NCBI GenBank assembly: GCA_009392915.1
Contig: CP045477.1
Location: 576,001 to 640,000, forward strand
Source of the DNA: Candidatus Forterrea multitransposorum CG_2015-17_Forterrea_25_41
GTDB taxonomy: Archaea > Iainarchaeota > Iainarchaeia > Iainarchaeales > CSSED10-239
Length of the DNA stretch: 64,000 bases
Reading direction: 5' to 3'
Shown: in pieces, positions 46,278 to 58,451 of the stretch
How positions within the stretch are numbered: the first letter of the stretch is position 1
Layout: every line of letters begins with the position of its first letter
Made by a program: the position numbers and the translations under genes
The notes under the pieces: model-generated
What the model was told of the DNA's origin: nothing
The model's database searches: none
The model's input: only the letters and a program-made list of their open reading frames with translations

Positions 46278-47813
46278 TTATTCTTTAATTTCTATTTTTT
46301 CAAAAAGATGACCTTGTTTTTTTATGGTTTTTCCTTCCATAGTGTTAGTGAAAGCTAACCTCTTATGTCCAAGATTACTCTCATCCAAACCTAGTTGTGA
46401 AAAAATTTCTGTCCATTTTCTTGTAAGAATAGGAGATAACTCTAAAGCAAGTATCCTTATAGACTCTAAAAGAACATACATTACTTGATCAAACTTTTCA
46501 AGATCTTCTTTTAAAAGATCCCAAGGTTTGTTGTCTTGAACATATTTATTTAAAGCATATGACATTTGTAAAATTTCATTAATTGCTTTAGATAATTCAT
46601 ATTCTTTATAATGATTATGAATTATTTGTATCTTTGATTCAATCTCTTCTGCAAAAGAATCTTTAAAGAAATTAAATCCATTTTCTTTATTTCTTTTTTC
46701 AGCTAAAGTAACAACTCTTGATAAAAGATTACCAATACTTGAAACAAGATCACTATTTACTCTTTCAACAAAGCTTTTCTTTGAAAATTGACCCTCATCT
46801 CCAAAAGGCATTTCTTTTACTATATAATATCTATAAATATCTGAACCAAACTTTTCAATATACTCTTCAGGATAAACTACATTTCCAAAAGATTTAGACA
46901 TTTTCTTTCCTTCAGACATCCACCAGCCATGAGCAAATTCTTGTTTTGGAAGAGAAACATCTATTGATTTTAAAAAGATAGGCCAATAGATTGCATGAAA
47001 CCTAGAAATATCTCTACCCATTAATTGAAAGTCAGGAGGCCAATATTGTTTAAATTTTTCAGAATCACTTCCACCTAAAGCAGAATAATAATTAAACAAA
47101 GCATCAAGCCAAACATATATGGTATGTTCTTTATCAAAAGGAAGTTCTATACCCCAAGGCACTTTTTCTTTGTGTCTTGAAATACATAAGTCTTCAAGAC
47201 CGTTTTTAATAAAAGAAACAAATTCATTTTTATTTGATTCTGGAGAAAGAAACTTAGGATTATCTTCAATATATTTTAAAAGCCAGTCTTGATATTTTGA
47301 AAGTTTAAAAAAATATGCATCTTCGTGTTCTATTGTAACTTCATGACCAATAGGGCATTTATTTTCAGAAACATCTTTATCTGTAAAAAAAGATTCACAT
47401 CCTTTACAATAATATCCTTTATAGCTACCTTTATAGATATCTCCTTTTTCAAACATTTTTTGTGCAATTTCTTGCACTGTTTTTTTATGTTCTTTATCAG
47501 TTGTTCTGATAAAATAATCATAAGAGATATCTAAATCTTTCCATACTTTTTTTGTATAGTCAACTAAAGAATCAAGAAACTCTTTTGTATCTTTTTTTTC
47601 ATCTTCTGCAGCTTGTTGTACTTTTAAACCATGCTCATCAGTTCCTGTTAAATAAAAAACATCAGAACCTAAAAGACGATAGTATCTTGCAAAGATATCT
47701 GCAACCACAGTTGTGTAAGAGTGACCTAAATGGAACTTACCACTTACATAATAGATTGGTGTTGTTATATAATATTTTTTTGGAAAATCTAAATTATTCA
47801 TAATTTTAATCAC
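46278..47813 (-). CDS. metG: Methionyl-tRNA synthetase (short form without C-terminal dimerisation domain)
   Basis: It has the HIGH variant HLGHSYT, a CxxC...CxxH zinc knuckle (CKGC...CPIGH), and KMSKS (KKMSKSFGN). Confidence 0.85.
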   Translation of the reverse strand: MIKIMNNLDFPKKYYITTPIYYVSGKFHLGHSYTTVVADIFARYYRLLGSDVFYLTGTDEHGLKVQQAAEDEKKDTKEFLDSLVDYTKKVWKDLDISYDYFIRTTDKEHKKTVQEIAQKMFEKGDIYKGSYKGYYCKGCESFFTDKDVSENKCPIGHEVTIEHEDAYFFKLSKYQDWLLKYIEDNPKFLSPESNKNEFVSFIKNGLEDLCISRHKEKVPWGIELPFDKEHTIYVWLDALFNYYSALGGSDSEKFKQYWPPDFQLMGRDISRFHAIYWPIFLKSIDVSLPKQEFAHGWWMSEGKKMSKSFGNVVYPEEYIEKFGSDIYRYYIVKEMPFGDEGQFSKKSFVERVNSDLVSSIGNLLSRVVTLAEKRNKENGFNFFKDSFAEEIESKIQIIHNHYKEYELSKAINEILQMSYALNKYVQDNKPWDLLKEDLEKFDQVMYVLLESIRILALELSPILTRKWTEIFSQLGLDESNLGHKRLAFTNTMEGKTIKKQGHLFEKIEIKE

Positions 47814-48054
47814 ATCCTTTATTTTTTATAAAGGCAAAATATTTAATGTAAAAAGATAATATAAAATATTTGCCAAAGACTTTAAAAAACCTGCTTTACT
47901 TAAGAGCAGGTATCACATGGCCATAATAAAAATAGTTAGAGCTAGAGAAGAAATATTTAAAGAGCTTTTCTCTTTTAGATATATGTTTTTACCTCTAAGC
48001 ATATATATTTTATAGAAAAAAACATATTTAAAGAGATGTTAAAAAGTTTTATAA

Positions 48055-48738
48055 TTAAACATACCCTTCAATGTATGCTGTTTTTGTTTTTATAAAAAGC
48101 TTTTTGGATAATTCAGGAAAAATTAAACCTTTTTTTAATTTACACACAAATTCAAAAAGTCCAATAGCAGGATAAGGAAGCAAATTATAATGAATATTTT
48201 CAAAAATAAATCCATTTAGAAAAACAGATAGCTCAGAAAGGTAATATTCAGATAATTTTTCTAACTCATTTAAAGTAAAAGATTTATCTGAAAAAAGATT
48301 TTTAATATAATTTAAAACATAATTTCTAAAAAGAATATTAGTATTAAATTCATCAAAAATTAAACACCTGTTTTTTTTATAATCAAAAGAATTAATTACA
48401 TCTTTCCAACGAACAATAATAATTTTTTTTTGAATATCTTGCAGATATTTTGCAATGATTTTTTCACACAATCTTTTTACTTGAGATCCTTTCTTAAAAG
48501 CAGTTTTTTTAGCAGAATCTTTTGAAAGATTAAAAAATATTTCATCATTAATAGCTTGGATTTCATCTGCAATTAAAATAGCTACTTTTTCGTTTGTATT
48601 TTCTAAAGCCCAATCTAAATATCTTTTAATATGTTCTTCAGAAAAATAATTATTTCTTACACTTATTCCAATATAAATATTAAATTTTTTATTTTTAACT
48701 TCAGTTTCATTTGTTAAAAAATAATTTTTAATAATCAT
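48055..48738 (-). CDS. Putative tRNA-dependent cyclodipeptide synthase (CDPS family)
   Basis: IYIGISVRNNYFS matches the AlbC-type GIS(x2)N(x)YFS pocket with the catalytic Ser. A downstream Y-x-x-x-E (YYLSE) and a later Tyr (HYNLLPY) match the CDPS catalytic Y/E/Y. The protein is 227 aa. The AlbC comparison was made from memory. Confidence 0.45.
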   Translation of the reverse strand: MIIKNYFLTNETEVKNKKFNIYIGISVRNNYFSEEHIKRYLDWALENTNEKVAILIADEIQAINDEIFFNLSKDSAKKTAFKKGSQVKRLCEKIIAKYLQDIQKKIIIVRWKDVINSFDYKKNRCLIFDEFNTNILFRNYVLNYIKNLFSDKSFTLNELEKLSEYYLSELSVFLNGFIFENIHYNLLPYPAIGLFEFVCKLKKGLIFPELSKKLFIKTKTAYIEGYV

Positions 48739-48747
48739 TATATATAC

Positions 48748-50397
48748 CTAAGAAAAATCAATCTCAAAACCACAAACAGGCATAGTATAGTTGTGCTTTT
48801 CTAAAACTTCTGGAGAAAATTCACCTATATGTCCAACTTCGTCATCATTAATTATAACTGCAGCACTTCTTCCTTTAATATAAAAAGGATAATCTTTTTC
48901 TTTAAGTCTTAAAGTTTTACCTAAAACATTTGTTAAAGATAAAAGATATGAAGAGATTTCAGTAAAACTAATCTTAGAGTTTGCAATAACTGCTGCTAAG
49001 TGAAGTTTATTTTCAGATAAAGTATCAAGCTCTTTATTTTCTAAAACAACATAATCACAAGCAAATAATTTTTGTGGAAAAGACTTATGTTGATTATTTG
49101 TTAAAGCTTTAAATAATTTAGGAATAATCCAATTACCAACAATATTAATTGAACTTTCAGCACTAAAACCTAAAGGAATATATTTTTCTCCCTTTATATT
49201 AAAATTTTCAAAAGAATCTTTTTTTGAAGAAAGAATAAAAGGTAATATTTCAATAAAACCCATACCCACCATAGAAGTTATTATTTGTTCTTGGAAAATA
49301 GACTCCTTTAATCTTTCTCCATTAAAGTGAACATCTGAGTATGTAGGAGTAATATTGTTTATAGCAAACCCTCTTAAAACATCATCTACAACATCATTTT
49401 CATGAAGGATGTCTGTTCTAAAGATAGGAATGGTGACTTCTATTAAGTCATCTGATTGTTTATTACAAATAAACATCATTTTCTCTAAATTAGCTATAGC
49501 TTCTTTTAAAGTTAACTTAATTCCTAATAATTGATTTATATATTTTAAAGAAACAACCATTTTTCTTAAAGATACATCTGGAGAAATAATTTTTTTATCA
49601 AAATATTCAATTTCTAAAGAATAAACTTCTCCTCCAAAATCTGCAAAAATAGAAGTTAAAATATTCATTGTATTTTTAAGTTTAGTTAAGTTTTGACCAG
49701 TACATTCTAAAAAAACTTCTTTTGTGCTTTCTAAGACTCTACCTGTTTCTTGAGAGTTAATGATTGGAGGCATTGAAAGTATTTTTTCATTAGAATCTTT
49801 AAAGAAAAGATATTTTTGTTTATCTTTAACTAAATAAGAATATTCTTGACCAGTCGGATGATTTTTAATAATATCAAAACCAGTCATTTCTTTTGTTTCT
49901 CCTAAAGGTATAAATTTAATATTTTCTGGAAAATCTGCCATAAAAGTTATTGGAAAAGTTATTTTATCTAAAGGATAAACACCAATAGCAACAGATTTTC
50001 TTTTTCTACCATAAGTTAAGTGTAATTTTTCTTGAACATTTATTATTTCTTTTATTTTTTCAGAATCTAAATTTAAATTTTTAACAATTGCACACATGGT
50101 ATGATTACCATAATTAGTTGCAGATCTATCAACAATTACTTTTTGTTTAGAATCTTTTAAACTAAAAGGAGTGTATTTTTTTAAAGATAAATAACTTTCT
50201 AAAGCTCTTTTAAAACCTACAAAAGAAAGAAGATCTATTCTTTCAGCAGTAACTTCTATTTTTAAAAGATCTGTTTCTTTATCATAAGAATCTATCTCTA
50301 AACCAAAATCAAAAAGAATTTCTTCTAATTTTTCTAAAGATAAATCTTTTCCAATTTCTTTTTTTAATCTATTAAATTCAAAATCTATTACTGCCAT
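48748..50397 (-). CDS. pheT: Phenylalanyl-tRNA synthetase beta subunit (archaeal type)
   Basis: Its length of 549 aa and domain order fit archaeal PheT, and it lies adjacent to pheS. The C-terminus has a B3/B4 core and a class II-like fold. Confidence 0.7.
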   Translation of the reverse strand: MAVIDFEFNRLKKEIGKDLSLEKLEEILFDFGLEIDSYDKETDLLKIEVTAERIDLLSFVGFKRALESYLSLKKYTPFSLKDSKQKVIVDRSATNYGNHTMCAIVKNLNLDSEKIKEIINVQEKLHLTYGRKRKSVAIGVYPLDKITFPITFMADFPENIKFIPLGETKEMTGFDIIKNHPTGQEYSYLVKDKQKYLFFKDSNEKILSMPPIINSQETGRVLESTKEVFLECTGQNLTKLKNTMNILTSIFADFGGEVYSLEIEYFDKKIISPDVSLRKMVVSLKYINQLLGIKLTLKEAIANLEKMMFICNKQSDDLIEVTIPIFRTDILHENDVVDDVLRGFAINNITPTYSDVHFNGERLKESIFQEQIITSMVGMGFIEILPFILSSKKDSFENFNIKGEKYIPLGFSAESSINIVGNWIIPKLFKALTNNQHKSFPQKLFACDYVVLENKELDTLSENKLHLAAVIANSKISFTEISSYLLSLTNVLGKTLRLKEKDYPFYIKGRSAAVIINDDEVGHIGEFSPEVLEKHNYTMPVCGFEIDFS

Positions 50398-50403
50398 GTT
50401 AAT

Positions 50404-51897
50404 TCACTCAAATTTTCTTTTAGGGATGATATAGTTTCTTAAGAAATCAATATCACAATCATCACCAAATACTTCCTTAATATTTCCTTTTTCTAAAAGA
50501 AGCATACCTATTCTTTCAATACCAATTCCCCAAGCAATTACATTATTTTTAATACCATAAGGCTCTAAAGTTTCTTGTCTGAAAATACCAGAATTCATAA
50601 TTTCTTTATAACTTTTTGATTTTTCAAAATATGCAAAAACTTCAACACTTGGTTCTGTGTAAGGATTATAAGTTGGTTTAATTTTTATTTTTGTAATACC
50701 AAGTTTTGCTAAGAATTCTTTAATAAAACCAATTAAATCTGAAAGACCAATATTCTTTCCAATAACAAAACCTTCTGCTTGATAGAATTCAGCTAAATGT
50801 GTTGCATCTAAAGATTCATTTCTAAAAACTTTACCTATACAAAAATATTTTGAATTTTTCTTTTCTTCTTTAGATAAATTGTAAAAAGTTCTAAAAGTTA
50901 CAGAAGTTGTGTGTGTTCTTAAAATTAAATCTTTTGCCATATCTTCATTCCAAACATATTGATGACCAGTAGAACCTGTTTCACCACCATTTTCATGAAC
51001 ATCTTTTATTTTTTCTAAAAAAGATTTATCTTTTACAAGACTACCTTTTAAAGGTAGATAAAAAGTATCTTGAAGCTCTCTCATAGGATGATCTTGAGAA
51101 ATAAACATTGAATCCATTGGCCAAAAAGAAACATCCACATAAGGACCTGACATTTCTTTAAAACCCATTTCTAAATAAAGATCTCTAATATATCCCATTA
51201 TAAGTCTCATAGGATGTATTCTTCCAATTTCTGCAGGTTTTGGTAGTTTAGAGACTTGGTATTCTTTAAATTTAAGATCTTTATAATCTCTTGATTTTAA
51301 AATTTCAGAAGTTAGATTAATTATTGTATCTTTATCTACTGCATAATCTTTTTCTTTTAAGAAAGAATATTCTTTCTCTAAAGTTATTTTTTTAAAAATA
51401 AATTTTCTTTGTAGAAAATCATTTATTTTTTCTTGAGAAGTCTCTTTTCCAGAAACAATTAAATTAAGATCATTTTTTTTAGAATCTATTTTTTCTTTAT
51501 AGTCTTTTGTTGGAACTATTTTTCCTTGTTCAATGGATATTAGATTAGTTCTTTTTGAAACTCCAAAAGCTAAAGAAACTTCTTCTTTTTCAAGGTTTGG
51601 AATATCAAGAGATTTTAAAGAAGATACTAAAACTTCTTTACCCTTTATAAAATCACAAAATATTTCTTCAATAAAACCATTTTTTAGAGAAAGAGAACCT
51701 ATTTCTGTTAAACTATAAGTTATAATTTCATCTACTTTTTCAGAAATTACTTCTTCAGATTTTAAAAACTCTAAAGCTCTTCTTAAAGAATCAACTTCTA
51801 TATCTAAAGCTGAATTAATTTCTTCAAAGCTTAAAGTTTTTTTTTCTTTTAAAAGATCATATAAAGAATAATCAATCTCATTTATTTTTATAACCAT
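50404..51897 (-). CDS. pheS: Phenylalanyl-tRNA synthetase alpha subunit
   Basis: It has class II motifs 2 and 3 (FRNESLDATHLAEFYQAEG and GIGIERIGML) with N-terminal winged-helix domains. Confidence 0.8.
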   Translation of the reverse strand: MVIKINEIDYSLYDLLKEKKTLSFEEINSALDIEVDSLRRALEFLKSEEVISEKVDEIITYSLTEIGSLSLKNGFIEEIFCDFIKGKEVLVSSLKSLDIPNLEKEEVSLAFGVSKRTNLISIEQGKIVPTKDYKEKIDSKKNDLNLIVSGKETSQEKINDFLQRKFIFKKITLEKEYSFLKEKDYAVDKDTIINLTSEILKSRDYKDLKFKEYQVSKLPKPAEIGRIHPMRLIMGYIRDLYLEMGFKEMSGPYVDVSFWPMDSMFISQDHPMRELQDTFYLPLKGSLVKDKSFLEKIKDVHENGGETGSTGHQYVWNEDMAKDLILRTHTTSVTFRTFYNLSKEEKKNSKYFCIGKVFRNESLDATHLAEFYQAEGFVIGKNIGLSDLIGFIKEFLAKLGITKIKIKPTYNPYTEPSVEVFAYFEKSKSYKEIMNSGIFRQETLEPYGIKNNVIAWGIGIERIGMLLLEKGNIKEVFGDDCDIDFLRNYIIPKRKFE

Positions 51898-52859: not shown

Positions 52860-53891
52860 TTAAAAGATCCTATCAAAACCATTTATTTCAAAAACATAAA
52901 TTAATAAATTATAAGAATTAGCATAATTTGCATACCCTAAAAAAGAAAAAAGAGAAGAATTAAAATTAATTAAAGAAATTTTTTTAGAATTTAATAAAAG
53001 ATTATTAAGTTTTTGTCTTTTTATAAATCTCTTAACATTTGATTTTCTTAGTTTTACTTTAGTTGGGTAAATTTTATAACCTAAAAAATCAACCCCTTTA
53101 TCTACTAAATTAATATAAGTTTTGTTTTTAGGAATTGTAAGTAACAAATTATTTTTTAAAAATAATTTAATTTTTCTTCTGAAAATACTTAACTCTTGTT
53201 TAGAATTTGAAAATATTAAAAAATCATCAACATACCTATAATAGTGTTTGATTTTTAAAGTATGCTTAATATATTGATCAAGCTCATTTAAATAGATATT
53301 TGCAAAAAGTTGAGAAGTTAAATTACCAATAGGAATTCCTTTTTTATTATTTAAAAACGAAAAAGAATAACTATCTATTATTTTATATATTATAACCAAT
53401 AATTGCTTGTCTTTAATTCTTTTTTTTATAATATATTTTAAAACCTCTTTTTCAATAGAAGGAAAATATTTTTTAACGTCTTGTTTTAAGTAATATTTAG
53501 GAGATTTTTTAGATTGAACTAATTTTTTTATTTCTAAAAAACCTTTAAAAGTACCTTTTCCTTTTCTACATGCAAAAGAATTATTTATAAAAGTTTTATC
53601 AAAGATAGGCTCAATAATATTTATAATTGCATGTTGAACAACGACATCTCTAAAACAAGGAGCACTAATAATTCTTTCTTTAGGTTCATATACCTTAAAA
53701 TTTCTATATGGAGAAAAATTAAAATTACCAGAAATTAATTCTTCTTGTATTAAAAATAATTCTTTTTCAAGATTTTGAGTAAATTTTAAAATATATTTCT
53801 TATTAGGATTTGATTTTCTGGCACGTTTATATGCATTATAAATGTTTTTAAAAGAAGTAAATTCTTCCCAAAGATTATTATATGATTTCAT
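52860..53891 (-). CDS. DGR reverse transcriptase
   Basis: It has the RT motifs IISAPCFRDVVVQHA (motif 1/2), ...YFPSI... (motif 3), PIGNLTSQLFANIYL (motif 4 in the DGR-specific [I/L]GxxxSQ form rather than QGxxxSP), and YYRYVDDFLIFS (motif 5 YxDD). It is 343 aa with no maturase or endonuclease domain. Confidence 0.85.
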   Translation of the reverse strand: MKSYNNLWEEFTSFKNIYNAYKRARKSNPNKKYILKFTQNLEKELFLIQEELISGNFNFSPYRNFKVYEPKERIISAPCFRDVVVQHAIINIIEPIFDKTFINNSFACRKGKGTFKGFLEIKKLVQSKKSPKYYLKQDVKKYFPSIEKEVLKYIIKKRIKDKQLLVIIYKIIDSYSFSFLNNKKGIPIGNLTSQLFANIYLNELDQYIKHTLKIKHYYRYVDDFLIFSNSKQELSIFRRKIKLFLKNNLLLTIPKNKTYINLVDKGVDFLGYKIYPTKVKLRKSNVKRFIKRQKLNNLLLNSKKISLINFNSSLFSFLGYANYANSYNLLIYVFEINGFDRIF

Positions 53892-54148
53892 TTTTTATAG
53901 AACCTATTAAAAATTAAAAGTTATTACAGATTTCTTTAATCTAATAAAATTAAAATACTAAATGTAATAACTTATTTTTATATTCGATTTTTAAAACATA
54001 AAAACAAAAATGTTTTTATGGCATACCTTATATGCAATCAGGAAACATTTTACAGATGTAGTTTTTAGAATATACACTTTGCATATTTTAAAAAATAAAA
54101 ATAAATATACAAACTCTGATAAAACCTTATTTCTTTAAAAATAAGGAG

Positions 54149-54269
54149 AAACTACTGAACACAGCGCAGGCCGATGTTGTTGTTCCGGTTCCCAGGAGTA
54201 TTGTTCAAGTTCAAGTTCAAGACCCCTGCATTAGTTCCATTGTTCCAGTTACCACCGCGCAGGAAAGAA
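54149..54269 (-). repeat. DGR template repeat (TR), 121 bp and non-coding
   Basis: It is a near copy of 55343-55463 but carries AAC/AAT codons in the minus orientation where the genic copy has mixed bases. It lies between the avd stop and the RT start. It is GC-rich against the AT-rich background. Confidence 0.85.
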
Positions 54270-54345
54270 ACGACTCCTTTTTCTGTAAAAGCCCTATTCT
54301 TTTTATAACTAAAAAGAACAAAATAAATAATTATTAGAAAAGTTT

Positions 54346-54675
54346 TTATAAATTATGCTTTAAAAGCCCCCCAATTAATTTACCTAAATCATTTAGTTTT
54401 TTAGAAATAACTTCATATTTTTTAAAAGAAATAATTTTTAGATCAAAAGAGAGCCTCACATATATTTTTAAAAGTTCTAAATCAGTATCAATTTGATTTA
54501 AAGTATTAATTTTATGTTTTGAAAAAAGAATAGTATTAGATAATAAAGAAATAGTAGTTTTTTTCAAATCTTCTCCTAAAATATATTTGTCAGATTTAGG
54601 AAATTTTTTAATTTCAGGATAAATATAAAGTAAAAAGTTATATGTTTCTTTATATAACTTTAAATCAAATAACAT
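54346..54675 (-). CDS. avd: DGR accessory variability determinant (Avd-like four-helix-bundle protein)
   Basis: LYKETYNFLLYIYPEIKKFPKSDKYILGEDLKKTTISLLSNTILFSK matches the Avd/four-helix-bundle family (the Bordetella phage Avd has ...YLYPIAQSIPRKHG...). It is 109 aa and sits between the target and the TR. Confidence 0.7.
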   Translation of the reverse strand: MLFDLKLYKETYNFLLYIYPEIKKFPKSDKYILGEDLKKTTISLLSNTILFSKHKINTLNQIDTDLELLKIYVRLSFDLKIISFKKYEVISKKLNDLGKLIGGLLKHNL

Positions 54676-54685
54676 ATTATAAACA

Positions 54686-55093
54686 CTATTTTTTATTTTC
54701 TTCTATTTTTTTTATAAGTCCATTAAAATATTTAATTTTTTCTTCAAATTGATTATAAAAAAAAAGAATTTTATCTTTAGATAAATCTTTATTAATTTCA
54801 CTTAATATAAGTAAATTTGATTGAGTTGTAGAAACACAATCTCTTGAATAAGAATAAAGTAATGATTTTTCATTAGAATGATATTTATTATATCCTTTTG
54901 ATAAAAAAGAAAGAATATTTATTAAATTTGAAATAGTTTCTTGAAAAATAAAATTATCATTTATAGATGATTTATTTTCTTCTAAAAATTTATAAGTATT
55001 AATAACTAAAGGAAAGAGTTCTTTGTAAACCCCAAAATTTAAAATTCCTCTTTCTATATTTACTAAACTCATAACAACCATATTTTTGTCCAA
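54686..55093 (-). CDS. Hypothetical protein (second small accessory ORF within the DGR cassette)
   Basis: 135-aa ORF co-oriented between the target gene and avd. No motif was recognised. Confidence 0.35.
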   Translation of the reverse strand: MDKNMVVMSLVNIERGILNFGVYKELFPLVINTYKFLEENKSSINDNFIFQETISNLINILSFLSKGYNKYHSNEKSLLYSYSRDCVSTTQSNLLILSEINKDLSKDKILFFYNQFEEKIKYFNGLIKKIEENKK

Positions 55094-55342
55094 TATATAT
55101 TGTGATTTATTAAAACCACTTTAATTGAGTAGCAAATTTTTTTGTAAAAAACAAAAAAATTTGCAAAAGCAAAAAACATTTGCTTTCTCTTTTGCCAATT
55201 TATTTTTTTCTTTTTTCACTTTTATTTTTTATTTTTTTGCACAAACTCAATCTTGAAGCATTGTTTTTCGCGACGTTACCCGTCTTACCGTCTTGCCGTC
55301 TCACCCGTCAAAATACAATATTCTCGAAATACATTTTTTCAA

Positions 55343-55463
55343 AAACTACTGAACACAGCGCAGGCCGACGACGCTGCCCCGGCCCCCAGGAGTAAAGTTC
55401 AAGCGCAAGCCCAAGACCCCCGCATTAGTTCCACTGCCCCAGCCACCACCGCGCAGGAAAGAA
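55343..55463 (-). repeat. DGR variable repeat (VR), covering the last 40 codons and stop of the target gene plus 3 nt
   Basis: It is a 121-bp, indel-free copy of the TR. It carries 20 substitutions, all at positions where the TR has A on the minus strand. Confidence 0.85.
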
Positions 55464-56707
55464 TATACAGTAGTAGAAGTATCTCCAAAATCACTATAAG
55501 TGTAAATTCTACCAACACCATTATCTGCTGCATTATAATTATTACTTGTAAGTAAAAATAAATCTTTATACTCTAAAGTGGTATTACCTAAATTATCAGA
55601 AGAAATGTATTGGGCTTCTCCACCACCTTTTGAATAATCAAAATAATCAAAACCAGTAGTAAAGTTACTATCATCAGCATTGTTAAAACCATCAGGTTGG
55701 TCTTTTCTTTGGATAGTGTCACTTGTCCATTGCCAAACATTACCAGCTAAGTCCCAAATTACTTCACCGTTTGTTAAAGTTAAGGTTCTTTTTGTAGTGC
55801 CAGAAAGTTCATCAAAACCTTCCATAGCACCAGAAGAAGAAGAATTACCACGTGGAAGATAACCTTCTCCAACAACTCCAGTTGACCAGTTTGAAGGTAC
55901 TTGTTCAATGTTTCTTGCAATGGTCATCCATTCGTCATTTGTTATTAAATGTCCACCTACTGCAGCACAAGCTGCAATAGCTTCGGTTTGGGAAATTCTT
56001 GCTATTGGAGAACCTTCTGGAGTTGATACTAAAGTGCCTGGAGTAGGACATAATTCATAACTATAAGTATTATAGGTTAAAGAACCAGTATTACAATCTG
56101 GATAATCAGCTACAAGGTTTCCTTTACCATCTCCATTTGCATCCATTTTCATTTCATATTTTGAAACACAAAAACCACCACGCTCATTCATGGTTCCATA
56201 TAAATGGTTTCCTGGAACTGGAACATAGCCTTCTGGACAAGAAAGAGGAGTTTTTACGGTTTGAAAAAGATCAGGTTTAGTTATCATTTGAGAATTGTCT
56301 AAATATAAAACTAAATCTAAAGAGTCACCTAAAATACCATGATCAAGAGTAGCAGATTGATTGGAAAGAATAGTGACAGGAGGTTCTAAAGGATTAATGT
56401 TTGAATTGCCTAATAAACTATAACCGGTAATGGTAATAGAAGTATAAGGAGAACCATAAGGGGGTTTATACTCTAGAAGAGAACGACCATTGATAGAAGA
56501 TTTAATATTTAAATAAAAGCCAGTTTCTGATTCTGTATAAACTTCAATACTTGAAGCTTTAGAAAAAGAATCATTGGTAAAGCCTTTACCCCAAGAAAGA
56601 ATAATACCAATAATAGCAACAGAGACAACTATTAAAAGAATGGTGGCTATCAAAGGAGAAATACCTTTTTGAAATCTAAAACGCTGAAAAATATATTTGA
56701 AAAACAT
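55346..56707 (-). CDS. DGR target protein: a pilin-like N-terminus (class III signal peptide) plus an FGE-sulfatase/C-type-lectin-fold domain with the variable region at its C-terminus
   Basis: The N-terminus FQKGISPLIATILLIVVSVAI matches the archaeal pilin/archaellin G-x-SP-[LV]-IAT-[VI]-LLI motif. The C-terminal half (GGFCVSKYEMK ... LRGGGWGSGTNAGVLGLRLNFTPGGRGSVVGLRCVQ) matches the FGE-sulfatase fold ending in R-C-V. The last 40 codons overlap the VR. Confidence 0.8.
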   Translation of the reverse strand: MFFKYIFQRFRFQKGISPLIATILLIVVSVAIIGIILSWGKGFTNDSFSKASSIEVYTESETGFYLNIKSSINGRSLLEYKPPYGSPYTSITITGYSLLGNSNINPLEPPVTILSNQSATLDHGILGDSLDLVLYLDNSQMITKPDLFQTVKTPLSCPEGYVPVPGNHLYGTMNERGGFCVSKYEMKMDANGDGKGNLVADYPDCNTGSLTYNTYSYELCPTPGTLVSTPEGSPIARISQTEAIAACAAVGGHLITNDEWMTIARNIEQVPSNWSTGVVGEGYLPRGNSSSSGAMEGFDELSGTTKRTLTLTNGEVIWDLAGNVWQWTSDTIQRKDQPDGFNNADDSNFTTGFDYFDYSKGGGEAQYISSDNLGNTTLEYKDLFLLTSNNYNAADNGVGRIYTYSDFGDTSTTVYSFLRGGGWGSGTNAGVLGLRLNFTPGGRGSVVGLRCVQ

Positions 56708-56847: not shown

Positions 56848-57543
56848 ATGAGTATAAGTATTAAATATCTTGGACACTCATCATTTCTGTTAACTATCGA
56901 TAAAAAGAATATTTTAACAGACCCTTTTTTTAAAAATGATTCGTTAGGAAAAATGGAAAGATTAGTCCCTTGTCATCATAAAGTTGAAGATCTTCCAAAG
57001 ATTGACTCTATTTTAATAAGTCACGAACACACAGATTCTTTCGATAAAGATTCAGTAAACTATTTATCTAAAAAATATAATCCAAAGATTATATCTCATT
57101 ACAGTATCTTGAAAGATATTGAAGGTCTTGAACATAATAAAGTTTCAATTGAAGAATATCAATCAAAAGATATCAATAACATAAATATTCAAGCTCTTCC
57201 TGCACATCACCCTGGTGCGTTTTATCCTTTAAGTTTTTTAATTAAAAACAAAAAAGGAAAAACTGTTTATTTTGCAGGAGACACTTATATGACAAAAGAC
57301 CATGACACTATAAAACCTGACATTGCACTTTTACCAATTGGTGGAAAAAGAACAATGGATCTTGGAACTGCAATTAGGGTTATGAAAAAAATGAGACCTA
57401 AGTTTGTAATTCCAATGCATTATGATACTTTTGAAGATATTAAAAGAAATCCTCAAGAATTAATCTATAGGTTTGGAAAAAACTATACAGATGTTAATAC
57501 AGTTATTTTAAATCCAGGTAAAACTTTTAAATTTAAAAATTAA
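56848..57543 (+). CDS. Metallo-beta-lactamase-fold hydrolase
   Basis: It has LISHEHTDSFD (the HxHxDH-type zinc motif), later His/Asp ligands, and a size of 231 aa. Confidence 0.55.
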   Translation: MSISIKYLGHSSFLLTIDKKNILTDPFFKNDSLGKMERLVPCHHKVEDLPKIDSILISHEHTDSFDKDSVNYLSKKYNPKIISHYSILKDIEGLEHNKVSIEEYQSKDINNINIQALPAHHPGAFYPLSFLIKNKKGKTVYFAGDTYMTKDHDTIKPDIALLPIGGKRTMDLGTAIRVMKKMRPKFVIPMHYDTFEDIKRNPQELIYRFGKNYTDVNTVILNPGKTFKFKN

Positions 57544-58451
57544 TAATCTTTAATTTCTAAAGAAAAAAGATCTTCTGGAAGAGAAATATTCTTTTTATTT
57601 TTTAAATTAGCTTCTAAATCTTTATATCTTGAAGACACATGAACTAAATATAGTTCTTTTGCTTTTATTTTTTTTGAAAAACTAACAACTTCTGAAAAAG
57701 AAGAATGTTTCTTAAGTTTAGCTTTTTCTTTTTCTTCATCTAAGAAAGTACACTCATGCACTAAAACATCTGGAGATTCAATAAATTTAGGATGTTTTTT
57801 TAAAACAGCAGTATCTGTAAAATATAATATTTTTTTACCTTGTTTTTTGAAAGATAAATCCATTACTTGACTTGGTTTTATAACTTTACCATCTACCTTA
57901 ATTGATTTTCCTTCTTGAAGTTTTGAAAATAAAGGTCCTTCTGGTATTTTAAGTTTAATTGCTTTTTGTTTATTAAACTTACCAATTTTATTATTTACTT
58001 TAAAACAATAACCATAAGATGGAACTGTATGATCAAGCTTTACAGAAGTAATTACTCCATTATCAATCTTTATTTTTTGATTACTTTTAATTTGTAAAAT
58101 ATTTATTTTAAAAGAAAGATTTATTCCACCAGCTTTTAAAAAATTTTCAAGAAAATTTTTATAACCAAAAGGAACATAGATGTTAAGTTCATCTTCTCTT
58201 TTTAAAAGAGACATGCTTGATAATAAACCTAAAATACCATAATAATGATCTCCATGAAAATGTGTTATAAAAATACTTTTTATTTTTTGAATACTTTGAG
58301 AAGTTTTTAAAATTTGTTGTTGAACATTTTCACTTGCATCAAAAAGATAATTACTTCCTCTATAATTAATTAATAAAGAAGTTAAGTTTCTAGATTTTGT
58401 TGGAGTAGATGCACTTGTTCCTAAAAAATAAATATTAATATTATCAGCCAT
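57540..58451 (-). CDS. rnz: Ribonuclease Z (tRNA 3' endonuclease)
   Basis: The N-terminus IYFLGTSASTPTKSRNLTSLLINY and the FITHFHGDHYYGILGLL MBL motif are characteristic of RNase Z. Confidence 0.75.
   Translation of the reverse strand: MADNINIYFLGTSASTPTKSRNLTSLLINYRGSNYLFDASENVQQQILKTSQSIQKIKSIFITHFHGDHYYGILGLLSSMSLLKREDELNIYVPFGYKNFLENFLKAGGINLSFKINILQIKSNQKIKIDNGVITSVKLDHTVPSYGYCFKVNNKIGKFNKQKAIKLKIPEGPLFSKLQEGKSIKVDGKVIKPSQVMDLSFKKQGKKILYFTDTAVLKKHPKFIESPDVLVHECTFLDEEKEKAKLKKHSSFSEVVSFSKKIKAKELYLVHVSSRYKDLEANLKNKKNISLPEDLFSLEIKDY

Follow-up and report, generated by a model that had tools for sequence, protein, structure and literature searches.

Cyclodipeptide synthases (CDPSs) take tRNAs that are already charged and do not activate amino acids themselves, and they have a known structural relationship to the class Ic aminoacyl-tRNA synthetases (aaRSs). 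Here we describe a putative CDPS gene in a 64,000-nucleotide stretch (the window) of contig CP045477.1 of the archaeon Candidatus Forterrea multitransposorum, where it follows pheS and pheT, the genes of phenylalanyl-tRNA synthetase (PheRS).

The family prototype is AlbC from Streptomyces noursei, which makes cyclo(Phe-Leu) in the albonoursin pathway, belongs to the NYH subfamily with Tyr-His at positions 202-203, and shares about 15% identity with the window protein. The AlbC gene clusters with a cyclodipeptide oxidase gene, whereas no tailoring gene adjoins the window gene. The nearest described relative is ParcuCDPS (CDPS 90; PDB 7QB8/7QAT series), a cyclo(His-Pro)/cyclo(His-Glu) synthase from Parcubacteria bacterium RAAC4_OD1_1. 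It belongs to the XYP subfamily, and its active-site residues S26, Y167, E171, and Y191 correspond to AlbC S37, Y178, E182, and Y202; D58 hydrogen-bonds S26, the D58A and D58N mutants are inactive, and G84 kinks helix alpha3/alpha4 (PMC7613923). The host of ParcuCDPS is a bacterium of the Candidate Phyla Radiation (CPR), while the host of the window gene is an archaeon. According to reviews, nearly all the CDPSs that have been characterised come from bacteria. A 2022 review counted one from an archaeon, Haloterrigena hispanica, and a text search found no published description of a CDPS from DPANN archaea.

We give a rough probability of 0.72 to the reading that the window gene encodes a stand-alone XYP CDPS of the ParcuCDPS clade with a hydrophobic first substrate, and that it was gained by insertion of a single gene after pheT.

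Family assignment

48055..48738, minus strand: CDPS gene, 227 aa, XYP subfamily, ParcuCDPS-like clade (from the open reading frame call)

A preliminary description, made from the letters of the DNA alone, had proposed a CDPS here, and profile, sequence, and structure searches all supported it. The protein matched Pfam CDPS (PF16715) above the gathering score (42.2 bits against 27; E 1e-10) and NCBIfam TIGR04539 'tRNA-dependent cyclodipeptide synthase' above its cut-off (62.2 bits against 45; E 4.9e-17). In a sequence search of the PDB, the top matches were seven ParcuCDPS entries (E 8.5e-27, residues 11-215), with other CDPSs ranking next. An AlphaFold2 model of the protein, built with 15 homologs as input, reached a pLDDT of 93.8 and a pTM of 0.90. 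When this model was compared with the PDB by Foldseek, the top 50 matches were all CDPSs and ParcuCDPS came first (TM 0.78-0.85). It is almost certain that the gene product is a tRNA-dependent cyclodipeptide synthase of known type.

The preliminary description had also considered an aaRS-like paralog. This alternative, a truncated class I aaRS that is not a CDPS, is negligible. No aaRS family appeared in the Pfam and NCBIfam profile searches even at E up to 10. The 227-aa sequence contains neither a HIGH nor a KMSKS motif, as had been noted before, and it lacks an anticodon-binding domain and is 8-13% identical to class Ic synthetases (TyrRS, TrpRS). The predicted single-domain Rossmann fold superposed better on CDPS structures than on class Ic aaRSs, and this ranking rules the paralog out.

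An identical protein is present in NCBI as 'tRNA-dependent cyclodipeptide synthase [archaeon]' (NCP71869.1 and others), from many assemblies with contigs up to 839,632 bp. The window protein is an uncharacterised member of a known family whose name had already been given by automatic annotation. Its gene content and size mark the host as an archaeon with a small genome: it carries aIF5A, PolB, PCNA, and an archaeal-type PheRS, its longest contigs are 0.66-0.84 Mb, and its GC content is 24%.

Catalytic residues and proposed mechanism

The protein was aligned to ParcuCDPS by HMMER, and AlbC numbering was taken from the correspondences stated in PMC7613923. Four segments carry the catalytic residues and the residues of the first substrate pocket (P1):

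48640..48678, minus strand: residues 21-33, IYIGISVRNNYFS, with the acyl-accepting catalytic Ser26, N29 (AlbC position X40), and Y22 and G24 of P1; aligned to ParcuCDPS S26 and N29
48565..48576, minus strand: residues 55-58, L-I-A-D, with P1 residues L55 and A57 and with Asp58, partner in the Ser/Asp dyad; aligned to ParcuCDPS D58, with L55 in place of Y55
48220..48246, minus strand: residues 165-173, YYLSELSVF, with catalytic Y165 and E169 (AlbC Y178/E182) and P1 residues V172 and F173; aligned to ParcuCDPS Y167, E171, and E174
48169..48180, minus strand: residues 187-190, L-P-Y-P, with L187 of P1, cyclisation residue Tyr189, and Pro190, which together with Tyr189 gives Y-P in the XYP signature; aligned to ParcuCDPS Y189, Y191, and P192

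The serine motif, the YYLSE (residues 165-169), and the conserved tyrosine pointed out in the preliminary description are therefore all present and map onto catalytic residues of ParcuCDPS, and the family scores given above show that they did not arise by coincidence. The whole catalytic and structural set of ParcuCDPS is identical in the window protein (S26, Y165, E169, Y189, D58, P190, and G84). The P-Y-P at residues 188-190 contains the XYP signature, with Tyr-Pro (Y189-P190) instead of Tyr-His at AlbC positions 202-203, and the variable position 40 is N29. Among 15 homologs at 36-57% identity, no substitution is seen at S26, Y165, E169, Y189, or P190, and the conservation of D58 reaches at least 90%. 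Each of these six residues is at least 93% conserved in 127 full-length sequences of the clade (Ser26 122/127, Tyr189 122/127, Asp58 120/127), and Gly84 is found in 104 of the 127. By a count on the sequence, residues 70-99 hold 9 Lys/Arg against 2 Asp/Glu, and the pI is 9.1; this would be compatible with the basic helix by which CDPSs bind the acceptor arm of the tRNA.

The protein would follow the standard ping-pong mechanism of the family, as the conservation of every residue involved supports. The aminoacyl group of a first aminoacyl-tRNA would enter P1 and move to Ser26, which Asp58 would polarise. A second aminoacyl-tRNA would then hand over its residue from the second pocket (P2) to give a dipeptidyl-enzyme. 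Y165 and E169 would position the intermediates, and Tyr189 would help the cyclisation that releases a 2,5-diketopiperazine.

It is improbable that the CDPS fold serves something other than cyclodipeptide synthesis, either as an inactive protein or as a tRNA-binding protein or aminoacyl transferase to another acceptor. The gene lacks the context of a biosynthetic gene cluster and a tailoring gene, spending charged tRNAs would seem costly in a host with a reduced genome, and several published CDPSs were inactive in E. coli (rows marked '-' in the published Table 1). However, the residues for the acyl-enzyme and for cyclisation, including Tyr189, are all kept and are invariant across the homologs at 36-57% identity; moreover, the protein is full-length with a model of high confidence, and many assemblies carry identical copies.

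In four of the 127 clade members a cysteine replaces the catalytic serine. The S26C variant of ParcuCDPS stays active (PMC7613923), and thioester-forming CDPSs may therefore occur in nature.

Substrate pockets and predicted product

Gondry et al. 2018 (PMC5816076, Table 2) described P1 by motifs of eight residues and P2 by motifs of seven. Pocket positions anchored on ParcuCDPS reproduced its published motifs exactly (GAYAWELY for P1 and FEWKYTR for P2), which validates the mapping. The P1 motif of the window protein is YGLAWVFL (Y22, G24, L55, A57, W111, V172, F173, and L187). Y55, E174, and Y189, which select His in ParcuCDPS, are replaced by the aliphatic L55, V172, and L187. When aliphatic residues were engineered into ParcuCDPS at these positions, the double mutants lost His and made cyclo(Leu-Pro) or cyclo(Phe-Pro) (PMC7613923).

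Among the 32 characterised P1 motifs, the closest is FGLAWSLL, with five of eight positions identical and conservative F/Y and L/F differences. By table row order and product, we assigned it to the cFF/cFY synthase of Methylovulum miyakonense, CDPS 91. Together, the aliphatic residues and this Phe-type motif weakly predict that the first substrate is hydrophobic, of the Leu or Phe class, and not His. CDPS 91 differs in having S and L where the window protein has the bulkier V172 and F173, and the P2 motifs differ as well. Other homologs from DPANN archaea and Gammaproteobacteria (P0015 and the L028 group; FGLAWTLL) are far nearer to FGLAWSLL than the window protein is. In P2, ParcuCDPS begins with FEWK and the window protein with YNLD, and the latter has a short deletion after Y-P. 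Across the 127 clade sequences the Y-E-Y triad is rare, aliphatic triads are dominant, and the pocket residues vary widely.

No tailoring enzyme (cyclodipeptide oxidase, P450, methyltransferase, prenyltransferase, etc.) was found within 10 kb on each side of the gene. The genes in this range were aaRS genes, aIF5A, PolB, a diversity-generating retroelement (DGR), metallo-beta-lactamase (MBL)-fold proteins, and unannotated genes. Adjacent tailoring genes are typical of the CDPS family and do not define it. Thus, the product is probably an unmodified hydrophobic cyclodipeptide. As a speculation, this symbiont-type archaeon could use it as a diffusible signal or antagonist.

Distribution and relatives

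An exhaustive profile search recovered 1171 cluster representatives at E <= 1e-3, of which 148 passed E <= 1e-30. Among GTDB species genomes, the CPR hosts were Saccharibacteria, Paceibacterota, Gracilibacteria, Parcubacteria, and Moranbacteria, and the DPANN hosts were three Woesearchaeota, one Nanoarchaeota, and one Pacearchaeota. A few Gammaproteobacteria and one Victivallales were also found. In a crude neighbour-joining tree, CPR and DPANN sequences were interleaved, and the window protein formed its own sub-clade with four metagenomic sequences at 54-57% identity. The neighbours of these four are a periplasmic-binding-protein gene, a methyltransferase, a GH113 gene or a radical SAM gene, and more distant relatives lie in unrelated bacterial or archaeal contexts.

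The 57% relative P0002 is directly downstream of a radical SAM gene (L012:102-1301 beside L012:1511-2197), and the 55% relative P0004 is two genes from an S-adenosylmethionine (SAM)-dependent methyltransferase (L010:106-834). These two enzymes are possible tailoring enzymes of a kind that the window locus lacks. Several clade members are much longer, at 374-754 aa (P0020, P0021, P0100, P0108, P0112, P0116, P0118, P0120, and P0162). In these the CDPS domain is joined to additional N- or C-terminal sequence, which could represent tailoring or carrier domains.

Probable insertion of the gene beside PheRS

The locus is organised as follows, in the order of transcription:

50404..51897, minus strand: pheS, PheRS alpha, 497 aa, an ancestral neighbour (Pfam tRNA-synt_2d)
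48748..50397, minus strand: pheT, PheRS beta, 549 aa, TAG stop (Pfam PhetRS_B1/B3_4/B5/tRNA_synthFbeta)
48034..48747, minus strand: lineage-specific inserted segment of about 714 nt, with a 9-nt leader, the CDPS open reading frame, and about 21 nt of 3' flank (blastn against L035)
47814..48033, minus strand: conserved spacer from the insertion to metG (comparison with L035)
46278..47813, minus strand: metG, methionyl-tRNA synthetase (MetRS), the ancestral downstream neighbour of pheT (Pfam tRNA-synt_1g/Anticodon)

Three relatives of the window PheS, at 81%, 77%, and 63% identity, come from syntenic loci. The third is named 'Candidatus ainarchaeum sp.', which is probably Iainarchaeum, a DPANN genus. 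All three keep an MBL-fold gene, a 263-aa gene, pheS, pheT, metG, and aIF5A in one block, and none has a gene between pheT and metG, where the gaps are 141, 251, and 98 nt. The adjacency of pheT and metG is kept in loci L035-L039. Against L035, the closest relative without the CDPS, blastn gave 82% identity up to the pheT stop (q152) and restarted at q868 (window 48033) at 79%, and the insert replaces 22 nt. The comparison indicates that the CDPS is a recent and clean single-gene gain in the lineage of the window, into a conserved pheS-pheT-metG array. A pseudogene in the relatives was rejected: no match in L035-L038 went below E 0.15 in a tblastn search at E <= 10, which leaves no CDPS remnant there, and L039 lacks the gene as well. 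Inspected by eye, the junctions showed neither repeats nor mobile-element features.

Foreign composition was rejected as well. The GC content at third codon positions is 8.8% for the CDPS, 8.6% for pheS, and 9.6% for pheT, suggesting that the donor was equally AT-rich or that the gene has had time to adapt. A gene next to the CDPS of the closest relative (L010, GC 18-23%) matched named proteins from 'Ca. ainarchaeum' and Patescibacteria at 38-41% only.

The preliminary description had hinted that the aaRS neighbourhood was meaningful. In a tblastn search of 34 homolog loci including that of the window, PheS, PheT, and MetRS were missing from the surroundings of the CDPS in the 33 others; matches were confined to the window's own contig, apart from a single weak class-I match in L014, roughly 5 kb away from its CDPS. 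A conserved link between CDPS and aaRS genes was therefore rejected (0/33), and the adjacency to PheRS results from where the inserted gene landed in an older array.

Expression and possible coupling to PheRS

The start codon of the CDPS is 9 nt past the pheT stop, at the junction TTAGGTATATATA-ATG, and a ribosome-binding-like AGGT overlaps that stop. All these genes are on the minus strand, so the CDPS is transcribed downstream of pheS and pheT and not directly upstream of PheRS as had been stated. The proximity to MetRS mentioned earlier was correct, with metG 241 nt further downstream. Homologs of pheS at 58-97% identity carry the name phenylalanine--tRNA ligase subunit alpha. Downstream of the CDPS there is a terminator-like hairpin on the minus strand (CCTGCT, a 9-nt loop, and AGCAGG, 47910..47890), followed by T6 (47889..47884). 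It was read by eye, and a terminator scan passed over it owing to the 9-nt loop. A promoter scan found fewer sites than in shuffled sequences, using a sigma-70 model that is inapplicable to archaea. The short gap, the AGGT, and the hairpin with its T-run suggest read-through from pheST. The CDPS is probably co-transcribed with pheST, and pheS is probably the first gene of a transcription unit that now ends with the CDPS.

One could then propose that the gene has been kept after pheT because co-expression supplies Phe-tRNA(Phe), from which cyclo(Phe-X) would be made. We consider this coupling unlikely. The spacing, the AGGT over the stop, and the first terminator-like hairpin and T-run lying beyond the CDPS agree with it, as do the best-matching P1 motif from a cFF/cFY synthase and the aliphatic substitutions, which admit Phe at the equivalent positions of ParcuCDPS. 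However, aaRS adjacency is absent from the 33 other loci of the clade, including those of the 54-57% relatives, and it arose from one insertion into the older pheST-metG array. Same-strand gaps of at most 9 nt account for 32% in this 90%-coding window, so the 9-nt spacing is no evidence of functional coupling. The P1 match is five of eight, three of the five identities are invariant in the clade, and Leu/Ile- and Pro-type motifs are almost as near, at four of eight. CDPSs draw on the general aminoacyl-tRNA pool, and none is known to require a dedicated synthetase.

The preferred reading is still that of a stand-alone CDPS with a hydrophobic first substrate, gained by insertion. Several points weigh against it. 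Activity is a prediction, both for the protein and for the other members of its sub-clade (54-57% identity). The clade-invariant identities and near-equal scores in P1 just described also make the first substrate less certain. P2 (Y144, N147, L148, D151, A191, etc.) matches none of the characterised motifs, and the end of its motif coincides with an indel that HMMER and MAFFT align differently; the attempt to predict a second substrate from P2 was therefore abandoned. Loss in the three relatives could replace gain in the window, although this would be less parsimonious. The donor search is limited by a neighbour-joining tree that carries no support values and by a composition that is not anomalous. 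Finally, spacing is what co-transcription with pheST is read from.

Other features of the locus

The spacer of about 220 nt before metG is 79% identical to the pheT-metG spacer of L035, which is near the conservation of the flanking genes, and it keeps the hairpin and T-run and an inverted repeat, GGCAAATATTTT...AATATTTTGCC. The spacer of L037 is 98 nt and unrelated. An Rfam search found no family; its one result was a sub-threshold miRNA match on both strands, which we read as a chance palindrome match. The spacer is probably the pheST terminator together with the metG promoter, and it may hold a small RNA. For metG, the mechanical start is GTG 47813 (511 aa) and the public one ATG 47801 (507 aa). 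A ribosome-binding-like motif, GGATGTGA, is 8 nt before ATG 47801 and is conserved in L035 and L037, and thus ATG 47801 is the likelier start.

A 303-aa MBL-fold protein (57540..58451, minus strand; L001:288-1199) matched Pfam Anti-Pycsar_Apyc1 (PF23023) and Lactamase_B_2. Its gene keeps this position in every relative, which makes a housekeeping MBL nuclease (RNase Z, for example) likelier than an anti-defence protein.

A complete DGR is present at 52860..56707 on the minus strand:

52860..53891, minus strand: DGR reverse transcriptase (RVT_1)
54149..54269, minus strand: template repeat (TR; repeat comparison)
54346..54675, minus strand: bAvd-like accessory gene (family match)
54686..55093, minus strand: open reading frame within the DGR
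55346..56707, minus strand: DGR target gene with an FGE-sulfatase fold (family match); variable repeat (VR) at 55343..55463

TR and VR are 83% identical over 121 nt, and all 20 mismatches are on template adenines. The syntenic relatives L035, L037, and L039 lack the cassette, which is thus a second insertion specific to this lineage; three genes, the 263-aa gene, pheS, and pheT, separate it from the CDPS.

Implications

The finding leaves the known CDPS mechanism unaltered. Its points of interest are the DPANN host, a P1 pocket that is naturally aliphatic like that of engineered ParcuCDPS, and the sharply bounded insertion. A bolder and unlikely proposal is that this DPANN archaeon of reduced genome captured a CPR/DPANN-type CDPS at the 3' end of its PheRS operon, and that the enzyme turns Phe-tRNA(Phe), or a different hydrophobic aminoacyl-tRNA, into a cyclodipeptide that diffuses out and mediates interaction with a host or competitors. 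If true, it would extend functional archaeal CDPSs beyond the haloarchaea for the first time and add a specificity so far unseen in the ParcuCDPS clade.

The clade of ParcuCDPS type is common to CPR bacteria and DPANN archaea. These ultra-small and probably symbiotic hosts are short of many building-block pathways, and they would still spend charged tRNAs on a cyclic peptide. In ParcuCDPS engineering, the three positions that differ in the window protein control substrate choice (PMC7613923). As the pockets of the clade vary widely, it is a possible source of new CDPS specificities for biocatalysis.
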